From assembly GCA_963741095.1 (NCBI GenBank), contig CAVUGN010000001.1:88996-120995 (forward strand): a DNA stretch of 32,000 bases. The letters are read 5' to 3'. Below, piece by piece: positions 6,213 through 32,000 of the stretch. Position 1 is the first letter of the stretch; every line of letters starts with the position of its first letter. The translations under genes and the position numbers were made by a program. The notes under the pieces are model-generated. The model was given only the letters and a program-made list of their open reading frames with translations. It was not told the DNA's origin and made no database searches. Source of the stretch: an uncultured Candidatus Micrarchaeota archaeon (lineage in GTDB: Archaea > Micrarchaeota > Micrarchaeia > Micrarchaeales > Micrarchaeaceae).

Positions 6213-6866
6213 ATGAACAGAAGCGCAAACAAGGACGGAAGGATGACGCCGCAGCGGGTGGAGGAACTGAGGGCGTTCGTTCGCGGAATAGATGTAACTC
6301 CAGAGGGTATAGTAAACAAGCCAGCCGCTGGGCCGAATGATATCGTAAAGAGATCCGATGTGGACAAGGATGTGGCAAGCGGATTGGGAAAGAAGCTGAT
6401 GGAAGAATTAAAAAAGCAGAATGTCGACGCTGACAAAGTCAGTAAACTGATTTATGACGGGGCCGATCTGGATTTTGTCGACGAACACGGCAACACGGCG
6501 ATGATATGGGCGGTGCGGAACGACAAGGCAGGATTCGTCGAGGCATTGATACGCGCCGGAGCCAACATGAACATCAAGGACGCCCAGGGCAACACCGCAT
6601 TGATGCACGCCACAATCTATGGCAACGGGAACATCTTCAGCCTGCTGCTGAACAATGGCGCAGACATGGATCTGCAGAACAAGACAGGCATGACTGCGCT
6701 GATGCTGGCCGCGAAATATAGTGATGACAAGATCCTGCAGAAATTGCTGTCTGCAGGAGCAAACGTACGCCTTAGGGACAATCTCAACAGGACGGTTTTC
6801 GAGCAAAGGCGCATGTCCGAGAGCGTGAGAAGGATACTCGAAGGGATAGAGAACAGGAGGGTGTAG
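6213..6866 (+). CDS. Ankyrin-repeat protein (about 4 ANK repeats), no signal peptide
   Basis: Repeated G-x-TALM-x-A...LL..GA(D/N)-x-N units, e.g. GNTAMIWAVRNDKAGFVEALIRAGANMNIKDAQ, GNTALMHATIYGNGNIFSLLLNNGADMDLQNKT and GMTALMLAAKYSDDKILQKLLSAGANVRLRD. Confidence 0.88.
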   Translation: MNRSANKDGRMTPQRVEELRAFVRGIDVTPEGIVNKPAAGPNDIVKRSDVDKDVASGLGKKLMEELKKQNVDADKVSKLIYDGADLDFVDEHGNTAMIWAVRNDKAGFVEALIRAGANMNIKDAQGNTALMHATIYGNGNIFSLLLNNGADMDLQNKTGMTALMLAAKYSDDKILQKLLSAGANVRLRDNLNRTVFEQRRMSESVRRILEGIENRRV

Positions 6867-6870
6867 CATT

Positions 6871-9285
6871 CTAGCGGCTCTCCTGGTCGATGTAATTGTT
6901 GATGGCGTCTTCTGTGGTTTTTGGCGGGTTGCTCTGCGGAACGCTGTACTCCGGAGGATTGGATTCTCTTCTGAAGAGGGTAAGGTAGACGATGACCAGC
7001 GCTACCACAAACAGAAGGATGGCCACCAGCGTGAGTGGATCGATTATCGACTTCTGTGAAGGTATCTTTGGCAACAGGCTCGTCGTGTTGGTCTCGGTTA
7101 TGTTTGTCTCGAGGTACCCGAATCCTATCGCATATATCGACAATCCTGGCGAGGTCGCCGAATAGAAGTACTGCGTTGCATTCGATCCGGTAAGATTGGT
7201 CGGAAGGGCGATCCATCTCGCGGCAGTGATGTTTTGCCTGTAAAGACGCACGGATTGCGGACTAACGCCCCCCATGGTAAGCAGACGCTTGCTCACGTTG
7301 AACCGGTACTGGACGGCTTTTATCAGAGAGTCGTTGACGCTGCTGTTTATCACGATGACTCCTATCACGTTGCCCAGGTTGGTGTTGGAGGCTATGGCGC
7401 TGGTTATCGTGTTGGACGCGCTTACGCTGTTGTACACCGTTATGCCAGCCGCAAGCGCGGTTATGTTCCGGCTTGGCACCAGGACCATCGAGTTCAGGGA
7501 TATCCTCTTTGCGCTCGTGGTGTTGACGTAATTGCTCGAGTTCCTTACCAGGTTGGTGACGCTTATCACGGCAGAGTTCCTCTTTGAGCTGTACACCGTG
7601 ACCGTGGATGGAACGTAATGCGTCGTTCCCGTGTTGCCGTGTATCACCGCTGATGCATGAATGTCGGTGTGTGTGGTCACGCTGATGCTCGAGACGTTGG
7701 GCATGTAGTTAAGAACGTATTGTGCACCGAGCTGAGCGGGCGTTATTGATGACTGGTTTGCGGTTATCTTTCTTATTGTAGCCACGCTGATGTTCTGCGA
7801 GCCTACCGCGCTTGAGGAATTCCAGGATATGACCACGCCATTGGCGGTGCCGTTGGTCTGATTTGAGCTCATTATCGTCGAATTTATTATCGAGAAACCC
7901 TTCGGGGTGGAATTGGTCACGAACTGGTTCAGCAGCGTGGTGTTGGTTGAGAGGGTGTTTGCCCGGCTCGGGATGTTGCCTGCCGCGCTTATCGTTGTTA
8001 TTCCCTGGGTGTTGTTGACCGCACCGTTGCAGCCGTTGCAGTTGACCACGACCGAGTTGGGTGTGGTCGACAGCGCGATTAGCGCGTTCGCAGATATGCC
8101 TATCGAGCTTGAGATGTTCTGGATGGCTGCCTGCGACGAATTGCTTACGGATACGGCGACTCTGGGCGACCAGCAGCCCATTGTGGTCGCATTGTACACT
8201 GACGGGGGAGCGCATATGTACGGCACGTTGATGTACTGCGTTAGCGAGTAGCTCAGCGAGCCTGCGGCGTCCATCAGCTTGTAGCAATAATAAGCCGAAG
8301 CATTCGGGTAAACTGGGAAGTATGCGGGCGAGGCGTTGAAACTTAGGTACGTCACTGGCCTAGTGTCGGATCCGCATGCCGTGGATGAACCAGAGAACAC
8401 GTACATCCTGAAGGGCCTTGCGTTGCCAAACCATGACGCCCTTATCGTCGCGCTGCCGCCGGTTGAAGTGGCAGTCACGCCGGAGACCATGGATATCGTG
8501 AGGTTGGAAAGAGGTATTGCCTGTATTGTTGTCGTGATTGAAGTTGAGCTCGTGTGGTTCGCGATGGTGTTTGAAGGTATTGTGGTGGTGTATTGAATCG
8601 TGGTGGAGGTCGTGGGCTTGGTGGTGGTCGAGGAGGACGTTATCGAGCTCGTCACAGTGTTTGTCGGTATTGTGGTTGTTGTCGTGGTGGTCGTGGGGTT
8701 GATCACGTAGACGTACATTGCCTGTGAGTATGCGTAGTTGCTGGCCGAATCCACCGCTTTGTAGCAGTAGTAGCCCGATGCGGTTGGGTAGACTGTGATG
8801 TAATAATAGGATGCTGAAGGATAGTGGTACGTTGCCACGTTGTTGGTATCGGATCCGCAGGAGGAAGATGTGCCGGAGTATACATAGAGCGAGTATTGGC
8901 TTGGACCTCCGAGCCATGCGGCGCGCATCACCACGTTGCCACCGATGAGCACGTTTGCCGCAGACATGCTGATTGTCAAGCCGTATGGCGCAATTATGCT
9001 GTTGGATATTATTGTCGTGGAACTCGAGGAGGAGGATGTGCTGGAGACTGTCGATGTGATGGTTGATGTGATGGTGGATGTGGAGACGCTTGAAGATGAC
9101 ACTGTCGAGACGACCGATGTGGAGGACGACGAGCTGGAGGTCGGCTGGGATGTCGTTGATAAGGTGGTTGTCGGGGAGTTTACGGGTATGGTCGTAGAGG
9201 ATGTCGTGTTTATTGTGTTCGAATCGGCGTGGACGTAAGGCATGGCCATTACGGCCATGACAAGCACGGCCGAGAGCAGAACCAT
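6871..9285 (-). CDS. Large secreted, C-terminally membrane-anchored Ser/Thr-rich surface glycoprotein candidate (S-layer or adhesin-like)
   Basis: 804 aa. Signal peptide MVLLSAVLVMAVMAMPYVHA|DS. Long S/T linkers. Two homologous roughly 95-aa Cys-containing domains. About 29 N-x-S/T sequons by my manual count. The C-terminus has a TM helix (LTLVAILLFVVALVIVYLTLF) followed by RRE and an acidic tail. Confidence 0.8.
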   Translation of the reverse strand: MVLLSAVLVMAVMAMPYVHADSNTINTTSSTTIPVNSPTTTLSTTSQPTSSSSSSTSVVSTVSSSSVSTSTITSTITSTVSSTSSSSSSTTIISNSIIAPYGLTISMSAANVLIGGNVVMRAAWLGGPSQYSLYVYSGTSSSCGSDTNNVATYHYPSASYYYITVYPTASGYYCYKAVDSASNYAYSQAMYVYVINPTTTTTTTTIPTNTVTSSITSSSTTTKPTTSTTIQYTTTIPSNTIANHTSSTSITTTIQAIPLSNLTISMVSGVTATSTGGSATIRASWFGNARPFRMYVFSGSSTACGSDTRPVTYLSFNASPAYFPVYPNASAYYCYKLMDAAGSLSYSLTQYINVPYICAPPSVYNATTMGCWSPRVAVSVSNSSQAAIQNISSSIGISANALIALSTTPNSVVVNCNGCNGAVNNTQGITTISAAGNIPSRANTLSTNTTLLNQFVTNSTPKGFSIINSTIMSSNQTNGTANGVVISWNSSSAVGSQNISVATIRKITANQSSITPAQLGAQYVLNYMPNVSSISVTTHTDIHASAVIHGNTGTTHYVPSTVTVYSSKRNSAVISVTNLVRNSSNYVNTTSAKRISLNSMVLVPSRNITALAAGITVYNSVSASNTITSAIASNTNLGNVIGVIVINSSVNDSLIKAVQYRFNVSKRLLTMGGVSPQSVRLYRQNITAARWIALPTNLTGSNATQYFYSATSPGLSIYAIGFGYLETNITETNTTSLLPKIPSQKSIIDPLTLVAILLFVVALVIVYLTLFRRESNPPEYSVPQSNPPKTTEDAINNYIDQESR
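8224..8517 (-). repeat. Copy 2 of an internal roughly 95-aa domain duplication in the surface protein
   Basis: LTISMVSGVTATSTGGSATIRASWFGNARPFRMYVFSGSSTACGSDTRPVTY...YPNASAYYCYKLMDAAGSLSYS aligns with copy 1. Shared positions are LTISM, R-A-(A/S)-W, Y-V-(Y/F)-SG, CGSDT and YYCYK. Confidence 0.75.
8698..8991 (-). repeat. Copy 1 of the internal roughly 95-aa domain duplication in the surface protein
   Basis: LTISMSAANVLIGGNVVMRAAWLGGPSQYSLYVYSGTSSSCGSDTNNVATY...YPTASGYYCYKAVDSASNYAYS. Confidence 0.75.
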
Positions 9286-9473: not shown

Positions 9474-9551
9474 CGTTTACGCCGTATACATTATGCTTCT
9501 TTCTGTTGTTTTTTGTTTGGTTAGAGTGAAAATTCCTGTTTGGAATTGGAT

Positions 9552-9588
9552 GTAGTCTTGAGGACGTGTATAGCGAAGAACTGCAACC
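9552..9588 (+). other. 5' strand of the pre-16S processing stem
   Basis: GTAGTCTTGAGGA (9552-9564) is perfectly complementary to TCCTCAAGACTAC (11656-11668). Further pairings are TGTA 9567-70 with TACA 11647-50, CGAAGA 9574-79 with TCTTCG 11641-46, and GCAACC 9583-88 with GGTTGC 11634-39. A 3-nt bulge (TAG 9571-73) lies next to the 4-bp helix. Confidence 0.8.
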
Positions 9589-10661
9589 AACAGTTGGTTA
9601 AGTTTAAAGACTCCAGTCGATGCTGCTGGAGGGCACCGCTATCAGATTTCGACAGCCATGCAAGTCGGCTCAACCACCTGGTTGGGCGGCGTACGGCTCA
9701 GTAACACGTAGTCAATCTACCGCAAAGAGGCGAATAACGTTGGGAAACTGACGCTAATGCACCATAGGCTATGACACCTGGAAGGAGTCATAGTTTAAAG
9801 GGACATGAATTGTAGTGTTTCCACTTTGCGATGAGGCTGCGGCGGATCAGGCAGATGGCGGGGTAACGGCCCACCATACCAATAACCCGTAGGGGATGTG
9901 AAAGCATAAGCCCCGAGAAGGGCACTGAGACAAGGGCCCTAGCGCTACGGCGTGCAGCAGGCGCGAAAACTCCACAATGTGCGAAAGCATGATGGGGGGA
10001 ATCTGAGTGATTCACTTCGGTGAATCTTTTGCTAAGTACAGCAAGCTTGGCGAATAAGTGCTGGGCAAGACCGGTGGCAGCCGCCACGGTAATACCGGCA
10101 GCACAAGTGGTGTCCACGATTATTGGGCTTAAAGCGCTCGTAGCTGGCCGAAGCCGTCTCATGTAAAATATTGGTGCTTAACATCAATGCGTGCATGAGA
10201 TACCCTTCGGCTTGGGAGCGGGTGAGGTCAGGAGTACTTATGGGGGAGGGGTAAAATCCTGTAATCCTATAAGGACTAACGGTGGCGAAGGCGCCTGACC
10301 AGAACGCATTCGACAGTGAGGAGCGAAGGCTAGGAGAACGAATCGGATCAGATACCCGAGTAGCCCTAGCAGTAAATTATGCAGACTCTGGTGTTACAAA
10401 CATCTCGAATGTTTGTAGTACCGTAGCGTAAGTGTTAAGTCTGCCGCCTGGGGAGTACGGCCGCAAGGTTGAAACTTAAAACAATTGGCGGGGGAGCACC
10501 ACAAGACGTGGATGCTGCGGTTTAATTGAATACATCGTCGGAAATATTACCAGAAGCGACGGCAGTGTGAAGGTCAGACTAAAGATCTTACCAGACGAGC
10601 CGAGAGGTAGTGCATGGCGATCGTCAGCTCGTGGTGTGAACTGTCCGGTTAAGTCCGGTAA

Positions 10662-11168
10662 GCTGGCGAGTGGTACAAATGACAAAGAAACTTGAATTGA
10701 ATCCAGACTTGAGTTACATGCTTGGTCTGCATCAGTGCAACAAGCAGGATTCTTATGTAGGCGTAGCTTCAGCAAGCAACGAGCTCATAGAGAGATTCGT
10801 GAAGCTTGCGTTGTACGACCTGAAGATCGAGCCGAACAAGATTCTTGTCGAGGAGGGAAAAGCGATTTTCTACAACTCGAAGATAAGGAAATTGTTCGAC
10901 AGTGCTCTTGGAAGAAGGATAAAGATATTCAAGTACCGAAACGAATACGCATCAAACTATCTTGCAGCCTTATACGACTGCAACGGTGGCGTAGACAGGA
11001 AAGGCCTCTTTCTGAGGAACCTGGAAGGTGCGGATGAAATGATCATGGAGAACATCGGATTCCACTCCGCGAAAGCGGGGTCAAAGAATTACGTGTTCAA
11101 CCAGGGATGAGTTTCTCACGTTTATCAGGCCCTACAGTATTAGGGCAAACCATTCGCCCGCCCGGTAA
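10662..11168 (+). mobile_element. Archaeal bulge-helix-bulge (splicing-endonuclease type) rRNA intron carrying a homing-endonuclease-like ORF
   Basis: The conserved 16S sequence is interrupted between GGTTAAGTCCGGTAA and CGAGCGAGACCC. The boundary is ambiguous by 7 nt because CCGGTAA occurs at both junctions (10655-61 and 11162-68). The intron ends pair (10662-73 with 11150-61), and a 4-bp CCGG/CCGG helix is flanked by UAA bulges on opposite strands. Confidence 0.85.
10670..11110 (+). CDS. Intron-encoded LAGLIDADG-like protein (compact, two degenerate motifs)
   Basis: 143-146 aa (GTG 10670 or ATG 10679). Motif 1 is LSYMLGLHQCNK and motif 2 is NYLAALYDCNGGVD, about 80 aa apart. This fits a single-chain double-motif LAGLIDADG fold. 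Both motifs carry N where the catalytic D/E is expected. Confidence 0.65.
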   Translation: MVQMTKKLELNPDLSYMLGLHQCNKQDSYVGVASASNELIERFVKLALYDLKIEPNKILVEEGKAIFYNSKIRKLFDSALGRRIKIFKYRNEYASNYLAALYDCNGGVDRKGLFLRNLEGADEMIMENIGFHSAKAGSKNYVFNQG

Positions 11169-11633
11169 CGAGCGAGACCCTCGCTGACAGTTGCAACGGG
11201 TTTAGAGATAAATCCGGCACTCTGTCGGGACCGCCTCTGTTTAAAGAGGAGGAAGGAGAGGGCCACGGTACGTCAGTATGCTCTGAATCTTCTGGGCCAC
11301 ACGCGGCATACAAAGGTTGGCACAATGAGATGCAATGCCGAAAGGCAAAGCCAATCCCCAAAAACCAACCTAAGTTCGGATTGAGGGTTGAAACCCACCC
11401 TCATGAAGCTGAAATGTCTAGTAATCGCTTGTCACCATCGAGCGGTGAATCTGTCCCTGCTCCTTGCACACACCGCCTGCCAAGTCACCTAAGTGGGGTC
11501 CTAGTGAGGCAGCACCTTAGGGTGCTTTCGAGTTAGGGTTCTATGAGGAGGGCTAAGGCATAACAAGGTATCCGTAGGGGAACCTGCGGATAGATCACCT
11601 TAAAACTTCGAGAGAAGTTACATAGTGTGCACA

Positions 11634-11668
11634 GGTTGCGTCTTCGTACATTAAATCCTCAAGACTAC
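11634..11668 (+). other. 3' strand of the pre-16S processing stem
   Basis: Complement of 9552-9588; see the 5' strand entry. Confidence 0.8.
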
Positions 11669-11675
11669 AAAATTC

Positions 11676-11682: not shown

Positions 11683-11797
11683 AATCGAATCGGAAAGGCG
11701 GGCGAGAGTAACTCTTTTTTGTTATGCCCACTACTTATGAAAAAGCGTATTGGAAAGGTATAAGTATGTATACAGTCTGTATATAGTTAGTGTCCGA

Positions 11798-12016
11798 ATG
11801 AAAACGATAATGTTGAGCGACGAAGCTTACAATAAGCTATTGTCGATAAAGGGCACAAAAAGTTTCACAGAGCTGCTCTCTGAGATTGTTGACAAACTTA
11901 GGAGTGATAAGATGAGTGATATAGACAGATTCTTTGGGATGATGAAAGATAGTGAAGCCGAAGAACTGCGTGGATTCGTTAAGATGTCTCGGGAATCTGC
12001 AAAGGCGAGATTATGA
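11798..12016 (+). CDS. vapB: VapB-type antitoxin (small, helical)
   Basis: MKTIMLSDEAYNKLLSIKGTKSFTELLSEIV... is typical of the small archaeal antitoxins found upstream of PIN genes. Its stop overlaps the PIN gene start (ATGA). ATG 11798 is preferred over the track start at 11750. Confidence 0.7.
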   Translation: MKTIMLSDEAYNKLLSIKGTKSFTELLSEIVDKLRSDKMSDIDRFFGMMKDSEAEELRGFVKMSRESAKARL

Positions 12017-12411
12017 AACTTTTCTTGGACTCTTCGGCACTCATAGATTTTTTTAATGGAGATACTTTGATACAAAATAGAATACACGCTGCAGACAAGA
12101 TCTGCACCAGCGTCGTATGTGCATACGAAGTTTTGATAGGCGAAAGATACAAGGAGTTGAAAGGCTTGAAGTCGTCTTATGATAAAGTTTCCCAGTTCTT
12201 TGATGAGATAGAGACTTTGCCTTTCACCTACTTAAATTCGATAAAGGCAGCTGAGCTGTCTGCTAAACTCGTATTGAAAGGGAAGAAAATGAATGGACTC
12301 GATGTAATTATAGCCGCTCAGGCAATAACAGAAAATGCTTGTTTGCTGACAAAGGATAGCGATTTTAAAGTTATACAGAAAACTGCCCCCGAGCTGGTTT
12401 TGGATAGATAG
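12013..12411 (+). CDS. vapC: PIN-domain ribonuclease toxin VapC
   Basis: 132 aa. MKLFLDSSALIDFF (first acidic D), ...YEVLIGE..., ...GLDVIIAAQA..., ...LLTKDSDF; this is the canonical PIN acidic-residue layout. Confidence 0.85.
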   Translation: MKLFLDSSALIDFFNGDTLIQNRIHAADKICTSVVCAYEVLIGERYKELKGLKSSYDKVSQFFDEIETLPFTYLNSIKAAELSAKLVLKGKKMNGLDVIIAAQAITENACLLTKDSDFKVIQKTAPELVLDR

Positions 12412-14537: not shown

Positions 14538-15635
14538 ATGGTACAGGCATTCAAAGAAAGCGTGAACCCTTCGCAGGATAAGTCTAACCCGCAGGGATTT
14601 ATCAGGTCAGATAATCAGGGCAAGAATGATAGCACTGTTAAAGCAGAGCGGAAGCAATCCTCTGATGATGGAAGAAAAGCGTTCATAAACTGGGGTTATG
14701 CGGGCATCGTTAACAGCTGTACCGAAGTAAGCGGAGTTGACAGGCTGATCGGGAACCTTTGGAGGATGCACGAGCTTACGGGGGCCGCGATACCGGTGGA
14801 TCTGCACGAGAAGGTGCTTGACTGGATTGCAGGGTGCCCGGCGGATTGCACATTGAAGATGTTGGAGGCATACCTGCAAGTGGGAAAACCAAATTTCACG
14901 CAGGCGGATGCCGATAAGTTTTACGCAAGGATAATGTATCATGAAAACAACGGTGTCATTATGAGTTCCCCTGGGAATTTTAAGAAGTTATACCGGCTTT
15001 ACGAGATGACTGGGATCAAGAGCAGTAACGATTCTGACATGAGAAGGGCTTACGCCAGGCAGAAGAGTTTAGACTGCTATCCTGACCTGATCGACTACTT
15101 CCTGAACAAGAAAGACAAGAACGAGGTAGTTTCTTTCCTCGAAAAGGTGAGGCTGCCGGTGCACGGTGTCGTTGCGATAAAAATTGAGTTTGGGATGCCG
15201 GTTTCTAAGGACGAGGTGAAGCAGGCATACGAGTACGTTATGAACCTCCGCAAAGCCAACGGCAAGGTTGACAGGCTGGGTGGCATCATCCTCGGATTGA
15301 AGAGCAATCCAGTGCTGGAATCTCTCAAGCAGGATCTTGAGAGGGTTGTCGATCGGGTGAACGACATGAACAAAAGAACACTCTTCAAAGAGGATGCGAA
15401 TGAGGCAAAAGAGGTATTCGAAGCGATAAACAAAGTGATGGATGGCGTCTCAAAGCTGGGTTTGGTGGATTTGAAGGGTTTACGCGAGATGCGTAAGAAG
15501 ATCTATGACATGCAGGAGACTTTCCTTGGATCTTTCTATCATTCTTCCACCCCGATCGAAGGACAAAGACAGTGTTTGATGCTGCAGAAATTGCTGAAGG
15601 ACGAAATAGCCCCGACGATGCAGAATGCGACTTAA
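14538..15635 (+). CDS. Hypothetical protein (365 aa, predicted mostly helical, no recognisable family)
   Basis: A long ORF with coding-like composition and a polar low-complexity N-terminus. It has no TM segment or signal peptide, and I recognise no motifs. An AATAAATA box lies about 25-30 nt upstream of the ATG, so the transcript may be leaderless or short-leadered. Confidence 0.55.
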   Translation: MVQAFKESVNPSQDKSNPQGFIRSDNQGKNDSTVKAERKQSSDDGRKAFINWGYAGIVNSCTEVSGVDRLIGNLWRMHELTGAAIPVDLHEKVLDWIAGCPADCTLKMLEAYLQVGKPNFTQADADKFYARIMYHENNGVIMSSPGNFKKLYRLYEMTGIKSSNDSDMRRAYARQKSLDCYPDLIDYFLNKKDKNEVVSFLEKVRLPVHGVVAIKIEFGMPVSKDEVKQAYEYVMNLRKANGKVDRLGGIILGLKSNPVLESLKQDLERVVDRVNDMNKRTLFKEDANEAKEVFEAINKVMDGVSKLGLVDLKGLREMRKKIYDMQETFLGSFYHSSTPIEGQRQCLMLQKLLKDEIAPTMQNAT

Positions 15636-29415: not shown

Positions 29416-32000
29416 TTAGCTATTAAATAGTGGTTTCCGATAGGTCGGCCAGGTGCTGTGCCGCCTTCTCCTCTTTACGGCCAGGTATATGGCCGACATG
29501 ATTATGATGATGGAGACTGCCGCTATGCCGTATTCGGCGCCGTTGTTGGATGTTGGCTTTTGCGCTATCGTGGTGGGCGTTGTCGTAGCAGGCTGTGTCG
29601 GTTCGAACAGTGCCACGGTGCGATCCACGCCGATGTTGAATGACACCAAGCAGGCGGTAGCGTTGATCGTGCCATTCGTTATCGGCTGCCATGTGCCGTT
29701 TACCAACAGGTATGGGGATACCTCGCTTGAAGGTATGCTGCAATTGTAGCTGAGCCGCATCATCAGGTTCAGTTCGGACTGCAATTTCGCGACGCCGGTC
29801 ACGTTTATCCTCAATGCGAGGAGCTTTGTATAACCAGGAAGGAGCACAGTATCGTTGCGGGTCACATTGGTTATTGTTATGTTGAAGTGCCCTGAGGATG
29901 TGGACTGTACGATTACATACGCCTGGCCATTGTTGAGGTCGAGCGTGCTGGATCCCGAGCTCGGCACCGATATTGTTGTCGAGACGTTGTTTCCAGACAC
30001 GTTCAGCTGGGGCGTAGTCTGCGGCTGCACGGTGGTCGTGGCTGTTGTCGCAACGGTGGTGATCGTAGAGGTGGCAGAGGTGGTTGAAGAGATCGCATTT
30101 GTGGAAGGGGAGCCCGACCCAGCCCCGCCCTGTGATTGCTGTGTGCCAACCTGGATGGTGTTCTGGACCGAACTGAAGATGTATGGAACGTTGGTGCCGG
30201 TGTCCGTGATAACCGCGTTGTACGAATCCGTGCCTGCAGGAGGGACGAATGCCCCGAAAGTGATGGTGCCGGCGAACTGGCCGGTGAGCGTATTGACCAC
30301 CGCGCCACTAGATGCGACTAGGTTGGCGACGAACGGTCCAATGCCGCCATTGAGAAGCACGTTGTAGGTGATAGATTGGCCAACAGTCAATTGAGATGCG
30401 GACGGCGTCAGGGAAGTGGCGGTGGGCGTAACCGCGACAGTTATGGTGTTTGATGATGCCGAGAATGAGGATTCCGGAGTGTTAGAAGAATCAGTCACTT
30501 CGAGCGCGAAGTTGTAGGTGTTGCCGCCTGCCAGCGTGCCTGCAGGTATGGTACAAGTCGCGGTGTTGCCCGCGATCTGGCCGCTGCCGGTGTTCGCAGT
30601 GCACTGGGTTGCGCCGGAATATGCACCGCCATTCACGGAAATGTGCCAGGTGTATGAATAGGGCGATGTGCCAGTGGACGGCAAGACGGCGGTTATTGTT
30701 TCAGTCTGGCTGGAGTCGATTGTTGAATACGCTATTCCTGGCTGGGCTGATTGAGTGAGTTGCGGTGACACGGTTATGGTCGACGAAGCAGTGGATGTGG
30801 AAATCTCATTAGCCTGCGAGCTGTCGGATACTCGGAGTTCGAAACTGTAGGTTTTGATTGTGGATAATGTGTTGCCGGGTATGCTGCAGGTGACGATGTT
30901 GCTGGAAGTCTGCCCGGTGCCGCTGTTGGTTGCGCATTGGGTTGTGGCGGAATATGAGACGCCCCCGTTGGTCGAGACGAGCCAATTATAGGTGTATGGC
31001 GATACTCCGGTTGATGGGATCACGGCAGTGATTGTCTCGGCCTGATCGACGTCGAGCTTCGATGTTGACACCGTGGGCGCGGATGGCGCTGTGAGCGGCG
31101 GATACACAGTAACAGTGCCGGATGAAGCGGAGAAGACGCTCTCCTGGGCGGTCGCGGAATCTGTTGTCTCCAGCGCGAAGGTGTAGAAGTCGCCTCCGGA
31201 CAATGTGTTGCCTGGTATGGTGCATGTGACCGTGTTGCCGGGGATCTGGCCGCTGTTGCTGTTGACTGTGCATTGCGTTGCGCCGGCGTATACGCCGTTG
31301 TTTGTGGAGACGTGCCACGTGTACGCGTAAGGCGAGGTGCCCGTTGACTGGATGTTGGCGGTCACAGTCTCAATCTGGTCGGAGTCGAGGTTCGCGGCCG
31401 AGATTGATGGAGTGTTGGAATTTGTGAGCGGCGACGCCACGACGACGTTCTGAGTCGTGAATGAGTTCGTCGTGTCGGGAATCGTGTCGCTGTCGGTGAC
31501 CTGCAGCTTGAATGAATAGGTGTGCGTGGCGATAAGATTTCCTCCGAAGATGTTGCAAAGCACCGTAACGCCGTTGGCTTCGCCCGTTCCGCTGTTGACG
31601 TCGCATTGGGCCGTCGGTGCATAAGAGCCGCCGTTGTCCGAGATCAGCCAATTGTAGGTGTACGGTGCGGTGCCCGTTGATGGCATGACGCCGGTTAGGA
31701 TCTCTGTTTGGTCCGCGTCGAGGCTTGATGCGGAAACTGCAGGCGAGTTTGCCACAGCCGGGGATACCACGTTTATCGTGTTGTTTGAAGCGGAAAATGC
31801 GCTCTCCTGCGCGGTCGCGGAATCCGTTATCTCAAACGCGAAGTTGTAGAAGTTGCCACCGGCGAGAGTATTGCGCGGAATGGTGCAGGTGACTGTGTTG
31901 CCCGCAATCTGGCCGGTGCCGCTGTTGACCGTGCACTGCGTTGCGCCGGCGTATACACCGTTGTTTGTGGAGACGTGCCACGTGTATGAATAGGGCGCTG
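29416..32000 (-). CDS. Very large repeat-containing surface protein, 3' part (5' end outside window); C-terminal TM anchor
   Basis: The track ORF begins at GTG 31770. My translation of 31771-31998 in the same frame has no stop and continues the repeat (...APYSYTWHVSTNNGVYAGATQCTVNSGTGQIAGNTVTCTIP...). From N to C the window shows at least 5 tandem 111-aa Ig-like units, one degenerate unit, a T/S linker and a sequon-rich domain. The C-terminus is the TM helix AAVSIIIIMSAIYLAV followed by KRRRRH. Confidence 0.85.
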   Translation of the reverse strand, partial: APYSYTWHVSTNNGVYAGATQCTVNSGTGQIAGNTVTCTIPRNTLAGGNFYNFAFEITDSATAQESAFSASNNTINVVSPAVANSPAVSASSLDADQTEILTGVMPSTGTAPYTYNWLISDNGGSYAPTAQCDVNSGTGEANGVTVLCNIFGGNLIATHTYSFKLQVTDSDTIPDTTNSFTTQNVVVASPLTNSNTPSISAANLDSDQIETVTANIQSTGTSPYAYTWHVSTNNGVYAGATQCTVNSNSGQIPGNTVTCTIPGNTLSGGDFYTFALETTDSATAQESVFSASSGTVTVYPPLTAPSAPTVSTSKLDVDQAETITAVIPSTGVSPYTYNWLVSTNGGVSYSATTQCATNSGTGQTSSNIVTCSIPGNTLSTIKTYSFELRVSDSSQANEISTSTASSTITVSPQLTQSAQPGIAYSTIDSSQTETITAVLPSTGTSPYSYTWHISVNGGAYSGATQCTANTGSGQIAGNTATCTIPAGTLAGGNTYNFALEVTDSSNTPESSFSASSNTITVAVTPTATSLTPSASQLTVGQSITYNVLLNGGIGPFVANLVASSGAVVNTLTGQFAGTITFGAFVPPAGTDSYNAVITDTGTNVPYIFSSVQNTIQVGTQQSQGGAGSGSPSTNAISSTTSATSTITTVATTATTTVQPQTTPQLNVSGNNVSTTISVPSSGSSTLDLNNGQAYVIVQSTSSGHFNITITNVTRNDTVLLPGYTKLLALRINVTGVAKLQSELNLMMRLSYNCSIPSSEVSPYLLVNGTWQPITNGTINATACLVSFNIGVDRTVALFEPTQPATTTPTTIAQKPTSNNGAEYGIAAVSIIIIMSAIYLAVKRRRRHSTWPTYRKPLFNS
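30148..32000 (-). repeat. Tandem array of 333-bp (111-aa) coding repeats with alternating A/B subtypes
   Basis: The P-Y-x-Y-x-W motif recurs at residues 36, 147, 258 and 369 of the track ORF and again at the window edge. A-type units (YTWH(V/I)S..NG.Y.GATQCT.N...GQI.GNT.TCTIP) alternate with B-type units (YTYNWL(I/V)S.NGG). A-type copies 663 nt apart (about 31258-31330 and 31921-31993) are nearly identical in DNA. Confidence 0.85.

Follow-up and report, generated by a model that had tools for sequence, protein, structure and literature searches.

Introns of the bulge-helix-bulge (BHB) type carrying genes for LAGLIDADG proteins have been known in archaeal rRNA genes since the early 1990s. Thirteen intron loci in the 16S gene, including one numbered 1093, were catalogued in Thermoproteales, Desulfurococcales and Aigarchaeota (PMC4496867). 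Within the Micrarchaeota, 16S insertions of about 520 bp were reported in ARMAN-2, Mia14 and ARM-1 at 'E. coli 1093', and the corresponding papers described both their splicing and the function of their open reading frames (ORFs), for which no homology was detected, as 'uncertain' (PMC8784108, PMC5498576). Here we analyzed a 32-kb stretch of Candidatus Micrarchaeota DNA, referred to in full as the window, whose 16S rRNA gene is interrupted by a 507-nt insert. The results make it highly probable that this insert is an archaeal intron spliced by the tRNA-splicing endonuclease EndA and by RtcB at a relaxed BHB motif of the HBh' type. The intron itself belongs to the ordinary archaeal kind already reported in this phylum, and is set apart by a single feature, the conserved product of its ORF, which resembles a homing endonuclease but lacks the catalytic residues.

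The insert resembles those of ARMAN-2, Mia14 and ARM-1 in its occurrence in the same phylum and gene region and in the presence of one ORF annotated as a hypothetical protein; its size is also similar, being 522 bp in ARM-1 and 504-532 nt in the introns examined here. It differs from the ARMAN-2 and ARM-1 cases in that the BHB is now defined with covariation, the junction is placed at 1101/1102 and the ORF shows a LAGLIDADG fold, the ARMAN-2 and ARM-1 ORFs being likened to the window ORF by their published description. With the 16S and 23S introns of Thermoproteales, Desulfurococcales and Aigarchaeota (I-DmoI, I-Tsp061I, I-ApeI) the insert shares a location in a conserved rRNA region, a BHB at the junction, a LAGLIDADG-fold product nearest to I-DmoI and a patchy presence among relatives (PMC4496867). 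However, the host is a mesophilic DPANN archaeon and not a hyperthermophilic member of TACK, and the motif is of the relaxed HBh' type. As compared with I-DmoI, the LAGLIDADG endonuclease of an archaeal 23S intron, the ORF product is shorter (about 160 against 188 aa, chain 1b24) and has lost both catalytic acids. Finally, the relaxed BHB motifs of lineages with a broad-specificity EndA, including ARMAN-2, display the same 4-bp helix, 3-nt bulges and single flanking helix (PMC3239211, PMC6379350), whereas the motif described here lies in a 2-kb pre-rRNA substrate and the exon strand of its central helix also serves a native hairpin.

The gene was identified by a full-length match of window positions 9610-11603 on the forward strand to the Rfam archaeal small-subunit (SSU) model RF01959 (1314 bits, model positions 1-1478 of 1478), and the covariance-model alignment contained one 508-nt insertion relative to the model. 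Removal of the insert restored the conserved mature 16S sequence exactly, giving a length of 1994 - 507 = 1487 nt, and one intron-less relative measured 1488 nt. An earlier sequence-only reading of this DNA had anticipated that joining the two parts would restore the conserved sequence and a normal mature length, although its value of about 1483 nt was slightly too short. It had also described a conserved block, GGTTAAGTCCGGTAA, ending at 10661 and resuming as CGAGCGAGACCC at 11169, with CCGGTAA at both junctions; both halves were read as described and the repeat was located at 10655-61 and 11162-68. Because of this repeat the covariance model set the insert after 10653, equivalent to E. coli 1094 (boundary 10654-11161; E. 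coli numbers taken from rrsH). Alignment to an SSU model, proposed earlier as a check, thus confirmed the insertion but placed it 7-8 nt off the junction, and the discrepancy was resolved by the related junctions.

Among the related introns the 5' junction reads CCGGTAA every time, while the 3' junction reads CCGG, then TA, TT or AA, then an invariant A. The two variable nucleotides must be intronic, which fixes the 3' boundary at 11167/11168, and the covariance-model boundary was ruled out since the nucleotides before the last A vary on the intron side while the exon copy is constant. The cut rule applied, namely cleavage by EndA between nucleotides 2 and 3 of the bulge, derives from the canonical 37/38 geometry of tRNA. 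The dU14/A15 scissile bond is in agreement with this rule (PMC12397907). Rule and related junctions together return an intron at 10661-11167, between E. coli A1101 and A1102, close to the position of about 1100 previously proposed. The boundary is ambiguous by one A, as 10661-11167 and 10662-11168 give an identical product; the interval implied by the sequence-only reading (10662-11168) lay one base to the right and predicted the correct product. Placement at 1094 by alignment alone explains the published number 1093, and the 7-nt repeat accounts for the gap between 1094 and 1101/1102 in Micrarchaeota; the crenarchaeal '1093' was compared by its published number only.

The insertion was found at the identical site in at least 14 independent Candidatus Micrarchaeota assemblies. 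The loci that carry it are L001-L010, L013-L017, L019, L024, L032, L035 and L058, always within archaeal SSU genes. A scan of the GTDB species genomes with the 5' junction returned 11 matches, and six genomes assigned to Candidatus Micrarchaeota or Micrarchaeia carry the intron. The five matches with bacterial titles (L011, L012, L018, L020, L021) contained no SSU gene and were treated as chance 19-mers, about four of which we estimated to occur in 596 Gb. Metagenomes were scanned with a 17-sequence subset of the ORF-family alignment. The close homologues of the intron ORF were few, and all of them were located inside archaeal SSU genes at the same site. The intron of L014 differs from that of the window at 16 of 507 positions, indicating that the window derives from a close relative of that metagenome-assembled genome. 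The insertion is absent from L022 and L023, whose exon-1 16S sequences are 92% and 90% identical to the window respectively. L022 reads GTTAAGTCCGGTAACGAGCGAGACC, the exact predicted ligated sequence, and both loci read GTTAAGTCCGG(T/G)AACGAGCGAGACC across the junction, as predicted for the ligation product.

At the junctions, CCGG 10655-58 and CCGG 11162-65 form a 4-bp central helix with 3-nt bulges, 10659-61 and 11166-68, on opposite strands. Both bulges lie 3' of their helix strand at the exon-intron boundaries, and the same holds in 12 lineages. On the intron side, GCTGGCGAGTGG (10662-73) and CCATTCGCCCGC (11150-61) form pairs at 11 of 12 positions, with a mismatch at U10664/C11159 and a wobble at G10670/U11153, and the helix reaches U10674-A11149, giving 13 bp between 10662-74 and 11149-61. 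These pairings, including the single G:U, had been read from the letters alone; they were reproduced, and the inner helix was extended by one pair. The unconstrained minimum-free-energy (MFE) fold of 10640-11185, corresponding to the folding check suggested earlier, recovered the CCGG:CCGG helix, the 5' UAA bulge and the inner helix. Of the two UAA bulges 4 bp apart described previously, the 5' bulge was therefore present in the fold, while the 3' bulge was paired there instead.

No outer exon-exon helix was detected by eye or by folding, in agreement with the previous description of a relaxed motif; U10654/C11169 and G10653/G11170 cannot pair. As no outer helix is possible, the motif is classified as relaxed HBh' and not as strict hBHBh'. 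A candidate outer helix between GUUA 10648-51 and UAAC 11166-69 was rejected, as it consumes the 3' bulge and is lost in lineages with an AAA or UUA bulge. Taken on its own, the BHB motif is cheap: of the 4.7e7 position pairs covered by a loose motif scan, about 170 matched on each strand, a rate of about 3.6e-6 per pair, and shuffled sequence gave the same number. The chance that such a motif coincides with the approximately 8 registers allowed by the rRNA alignment is about 3e-5 by our own estimate, in which covariation is not counted.

To assess covariation, 12 distinct pairs of junction sequences were aligned without gaps, every one of them belonging to Candidatus Micrarchaeota (DPANN). 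The proposed structure had 90.3% of its cells paired, as against 25-44% when the 3' partners were slid by 1-3 columns. The inner helix h' showed 87.5% of cells paired and both-side, compensatory changes in 11 of its 14 pairs, for example from GCUGG/CCAGC to ACCUG/CAGGU in L024 and AUCGC/GCGGU in L058. None of 500 shuffles reached any of the five observed covariation measures. The first two nucleotides of the 3' bulge, which are intronic, vary freely among the relatives, as expected of unpaired positions. Together with the exact intron-less alleles, this conserved and covarying BHB argues strongly for the intronic nature of the Micrarchaeota 16S insertion.

On this basis a splicing pathway can be proposed. 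In the precursor, the exon CCGG (10655-58) would pair with the CCGG at the 3' end of the intron (11162-65), leaving a 3-nt bulge after each strand; the 13-bp intron-intron helix would close the inner side, with no outer helix. EndA would cleave each bulge after nucleotide 2, the enzyme expected in Micrarchaeota being the broad-specificity epsilon-2 form. RtcB would then ligate the exons to give ...GUUAAGUCCGGUA/ACGAGCGAGACCC... and would probably circularise the intron, with an expected circle junction ...CCCGGUA/AGCUGGCG.... The sequence-only reading had pointed out that a relaxed motif needs a broad-specificity endonuclease, and this fits the literature on the epsilon-2 EndA of ARMAN-2, the type organism of the Micrarchaeota; this enzyme cleaves both strict and relaxed motifs (PMC3239211, PMC12397907). 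The exact predicted cut sites can be tested with the ARMAN-2 endonuclease, which has already been crystallised.

The gene's own pre-16S processing stem provides supporting context in the form of a BHB-like 3(4)-4-3 motif. In the RNAcofold structure of the gene flanks, a 4-nt bulge separates an outer helix of 14 bp from a 4-bp helix, and a 3-nt bulge separates the latter from an inner helix of 7 bp; such a stem is the usual archaeal EndA site in pre-rRNA. The 3' bulge begins with UAA in both the processing-stem motif and the intron motif.

A number of observations weigh against splicing by EndA and RtcB. Neither the EndA nor the RtcB gene was found within the 32-kb window, and the relaxed motif tried in vitro with ARMAN-2 EndA was of the hBH and not of the HBh' type (PMC3239211). 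With no outer helix h, the 3' bulge is not closed. The energy model slightly favours other conformers, and the MFE fold pairs the 3' bulge with GUUA 10648-51. The latter pairing is not conserved among the relatives, and the variation of the first two nucleotides of the 3' bulge disposes of it. The exon CCGG 10655-58 is, in the mature rRNA, the 3' strand of the 1086-1099 hairpin (CCGG-UUAAGU-CCGG), and in the ensemble of a mini-substrate the central helix reached a probability of 0.42 against 0.57 for this native hairpin. Since the hairpin competes for the exon CCGG, the splice-competent fold must either be trapped by the enzyme or receive help in forming. In addition, the central helix is invariant, with the intron-side CCGG unchanged in all 12 lineages, so that covariation provides neither support for this helix nor a test of it. 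The rRNA constrains the exon strand of the helix, and the intron strand tracks the exon strand.

The structural evidence for cleavage would apply equally to an insert excised at both bulges whose exons were not religated, leaving the 16S rRNA as pieces of about 1051 and 436 nt held in the ribosome, an arrangement that resembles the bacterial intervening sequences. The window shows no sign of ligation and, as reported above, contains no RtcB gene. Nevertheless, to our knowledge all characterised archaeal rRNA BHB introns are ligated, and the junction falls in a universally conserved single-stranded linker. It is well established that RtcB, an almost universal enzyme of archaea, takes the products of EndA as its natural substrates (cited in PMC4496867), and we consider unligated exons very unlikely, although they and retention of the insert account for most of the probability left over by the preferred reading. 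Retention of the 507 nt as an expansion segment of the mature 16S rRNA, with a basal stem keeping the insert out of the way, would be suited by the long conserved basal helix, and the splicing of the ARM-1 insertion was indeed called uncertain (PMC8784108). Such a segment needs a closing helix, however, and not the exact 3-4-3 arrangement, in which the intron-side CCGG is invariant while the bulge nucleotides are free to vary across the 12 lineages. The segment would occupy what should be a universally conserved linker of the 30S head. Nearly all of the insert is a protein-coding ORF under purifying selection, and close relatives lack the insert precisely; retention therefore appears very unlikely.

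LAGLIDADG ORFs are typical of group I introns, and group I introns occur in Micrarchaeota large-subunit rRNA genes and at SSU/1498 (PMC6125680), so that a self-splicing intron of group I or group II, housing a gene for a homing endonuclease, was also considered. The intron ends form a BHB, and no Rfam intron family was matched at gathering thresholds in the whole window or at E <= 5 in the insert; in the interval 10655-11175, no Rfam family at all was matched at E <= 5. The intact ORF fills the full-length intron except for about 20 nt, which leaves no room for a ribozyme core and excludes a ribozyme. A self-splicing intron was rejected on these two grounds, the lack of a covariance-model match to a ribozyme core and the lack of non-coding room, and we assign it a negligible probability. 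The CCGGTAA direct repeat flanking the insert might in principle betray an assembly artefact, a chimera in which foreign DNA was joined into the 16S contig at a short repeat. The same insertion is however present in many independent and sequence-diverged ENA, NCBI and JGI assemblies, including a 1.2-Mb chromosome and a 929-kb contig, which makes an artefact hardly conceivable. An intron removed by EndA and RtcB thus remains the preferred interpretation of the insert.

The sequence-only reading had overlooked the intron ORF, as well as the prior reports of such insertions in Micrarchaeota. In L014 and L009 the intact ORF encodes 162 aa and ends at the UAA of the 3' bulge; the full-length ORF covers about 95% of the intron, and homologues range from 158 to 175 aa. 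The window ORF lacks its last 20 residues or so owing to a 1-nt frameshift, and the lost C-terminus can still be read as far as 11168 in the +1 frame. The extra G could represent either recent decay or a homopolymer assembly error, and the ORF of L010 carries several frameshifts. The stop codon of the full-length ORF coincides with the 3' bulge, with UA contributed by the intron and A by exon 2. Circularisation would restore UAA through the first nucleotide of the intron, A. At the equivalent junction of L006, L017 and L019 (UU + AG) a UAG codon would arise, and an excised intron in linear form would lack a stop codon. A GAGUG(A/G)U element in the 5' strand of the inner helix (window 10668-10674), kept in nearly all lineages 5-12 nt before the ORF start, resembles a Shine-Dalgarno sequence for the 16S 3' end (...GAUCACCUUAA) and would be masked by the inner helix.

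A profile search with the ORF returned 94 proteins of about 160-175 aa, unnamed or labelled "hypothetical, Micrarchaeota", and an exhaustive hidden Markov model search yielded 133 cluster representatives among 1.84 billion. The family model was built on a 59-sequence alignment. The AlphaFold model of the family (pLDDT 95.4, pTM 0.90) consists of two alpha-beta-beta-alpha-beta-beta-alpha domains packed via two LAGLIDADG helices, the first domain having one strand fewer in DSSP. Foldseek against the PDB placed I-DmoI at the top (probability 1.0, TM 0.62-0.68), followed by I-Tsp061I and PI-SceI, both also with probability 1.0, and by the WhiA N-terminal domain. At the sequence level the relationship is faint: the window ORF did not pass the Pfam LAGLIDADG threshold (15.3 bits, cut-off 22.5), LAGLIDADG_3 gave weak, sub-threshold matches in 13 of 59 members (best E = 4.7e-4), and a profile search of the PDB sequences with the family returned nothing relevant. 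Alignment to I-DmoI by hhalign had a low probability (5%) and placed motif 2 as the fold search implies.

The LAGLIDADG-like helices read SYMLGxYxCN and YFAGxFDCxG, with N21 aligned to the catalytic D21 of I-DmoI and N102 to E117. The catalytic D/E at the C-terminal end of each helix is absent from the family core: columns 21 and 102 are occupied by N, S, G, K, C, A, R and similar residues, with D/E in none of the 59 aligned members. In a 263-sequence alignment D/E occurred at these columns mostly in weak fringe matches (P0210-P0220) that resemble ordinary endonucleases, which validates the assignment of the columns; three stronger matches (P0103, P0128, P0191) have an acid at one of the two columns each. 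The ratio of nonsynonymous to synonymous substitution rates (dN/dS) was 0.13-0.27 between intron copies. The family is under purifying selection (dN/dS about 0.15) despite the loss of both catalytic acids in its core. The missing acids and the selection signal argue that the product is probably not a working homing endonuclease and is more likely to keep a binding function. In this respect it resembles inactive LAGLIDADG derivatives such as the WhiA N-terminal domain and the intron maturases, in which the two-domain fold is kept by selection and the acids are lost, but it lacks the extra helix-turn-helix domain of WhiA and is associated with a protein-cut intron, while the introns of the maturases are self-splicing.

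Other 16S introns in the phylum (L025, L058) carry ordinary LAGLIDADG genes with intact motifs. The insert at L025 562-1007 (445 nt) encodes a 132-aa one-motif ORF with YLAGFFDGEG, and that at L058 221-845 (about 620 nt) a 211-aa two-motif ORF with GFWDAEGG. Inserts at further sites were observed in L029 (1180-2021, 840 nt), which contains a 261-aa ORF with a PD-(D/E)xK-like VDVFF...VIECKD motif, and in L028 (about 105-182), which is short, about 76 nt.

Homologues of the ORF also occur as free-standing genes, located about 100-145 nt downstream of intron-less 16S genes in six loci (L022, L023, L025, L026, L031, L036), farther downstream in L027-L030, and divergent and upstream of the 16S gene in L038, L040 and L041. 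No rRNA gene lies within 2.5 kb of the more distant members (25-35% identity), some of which adjoin tRNA genes (L034, L044). No obvious BHB motif was seen around the free-standing ORF in the co-fold of one locus. Among six pairs of free-standing copies, five gave a dN/dS of 0.14-0.19 and the remaining one 0.36. A nuclease that cut the intron-less 1101/1102 site would be incompatible with the presence of this target in its own genome, which argues against cleavage; the coexistence of a homologue with an intact target is in keeping with the loss of the catalytic residues and suggests that a function other than cleavage has been retained.

We tentatively suggest that this DPANN-specific family (about 130 clusters at 50% identity), having lost both acids early and having been selected since, is a domesticated factor and not a selfish nuclease, a reading that we regard as possible but somewhat doubtful. 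The protein might bind the 16S rDNA site, or it might assist pre-16S rRNA as a maturase-like chaperone, shifting the balance between the native 1086-1099 hairpin and the splice-competent BHB. We know of no maturase described for a protein-cut (BHB) intron. A catalytically disabled LAGLIDADG protein linked to the 16S gene both inside and outside an intron is a candidate for homing-endonuclease domestication in archaea with very small genomes. The coordinates of the main features are collected in Table 1.

Table 1. Features of the interrupted 16S rRNA gene and of related loci (window positions, unless a locus is named).
Feature	Position	Strand	Basis
Archaeal SSU (16S) rRNA gene, interrupted	9610-11603	+	Rfam RF01959
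Exon 1, up to E. coli A1101	9610-10660	+	Covariance-model alignment; boundary from BHB rule and related junctions
Intron, 507 nt	10661-11167	+	SSU-model insertion; present in relatives; absent from L022 and L023
Exon 2, from E. coli A1102	11168-11603	+	Covariance-model alignment and E. coli numbering
Central helix H, 5' strand (exon CCGG)	10655-10658	+	MFE pairing with 11162-11165; invariant in 12 lineages
5' bulge UAA, predicted cut 10660/10661	10659-10661	+	Unpaired in MFE fold; invariant in all lineages; cut predicted from BHB geometry
Inner helix h', 5' strand	10662-10674	+	MFE pairing with 11149-11161; covariation
Inner helix h', 3' strand	11149-11161	+	MFE fold; covariation
Central helix H, 3' strand (intron CCGG)	11162-11165	+	MFE fold; lineage comparison
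3' bulge UAA, predicted cut 11167/11168	11166-11168	+	Nucleotides 1-2 UA, UU or AA in relatives, nucleotide 3 always A
Intron ORF, 143 aa + stop, LAGLIDADG-fold, truncated	10679-11110	+	ORF call, homologues, AlphaFold, I-DmoI match
GGG run with one extra G, frameshift site	11104-11106	+	Alignment with L014 and L009
Orphaned C-terminal segment, +1 frame (DEFLTFIRPYSIRANHSPAR, stop), stop UAA = 3' bulge	11106-11168	+	Three-frame translation against L014 and L009
Pre-16S processing stem, 5' strand	9551-9579	+	Outer 9551-64, H 9566-69, bulge 9570-72, inner 9573-79 (RNAcofold)
Pre-16S processing stem, 3' strand	11641-11669	+	Inner 11641-47, H 11648-51, bulge 11652-55, outer 11656-69 (RNAcofold)
Free-standing homologues	L022 2501-3013, L023 2501-3025, L025 2501-2992, L026 1090-1581, L031 1194-1685, L036 758-1228

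In the literature searched we found neither a BHB analysis with covariation nor a corrected 1101/1102 junction for the Micrarchaeota insertion; the LAGLIDADG fold of the ORF and the family-wide catalytic loss under purifying selection were likewise not found there, nor were the free-standing copies beside intron-less 16S genes. The result has practical consequences, as the intron splits the 1100 region: carriers give 2-kb amplicons or escape primers spanning 1094-1114, and alignment-only tools misplace the junction by 7-8 nt.

As for the surroundings, the window also encodes the ribosomal proteins S4e, S8, L6, L18, S5, S11, S4 and S13 and a CDP-archaeol synthase, a content that fits an archaeon. 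The 16S gene stands alone among the ribosomal-protein genes: no 23S match was obtained in the Rfam scan of the 32-kb window, and neither a 23S nor a 5S gene lies within it, indicating that the rRNA genes are unlinked. Three ORFs of 804, 784 and 365 aa without a Pfam match and an ankyrin-repeat protein were noted at 6871-9285 (-), 29416-31770 (-), 14538-15635 (+) and 6213-6866 (+) respectively. Directly 3' of the 16S gene, at 11750-12411, a VapB antitoxin and PIN (VapC) toxin pair occupies the place held by the free-standing LAGLIDADG-like gene in relatives, and in L010 a PIN-domain gene is likewise located downstream of the 16S gene.

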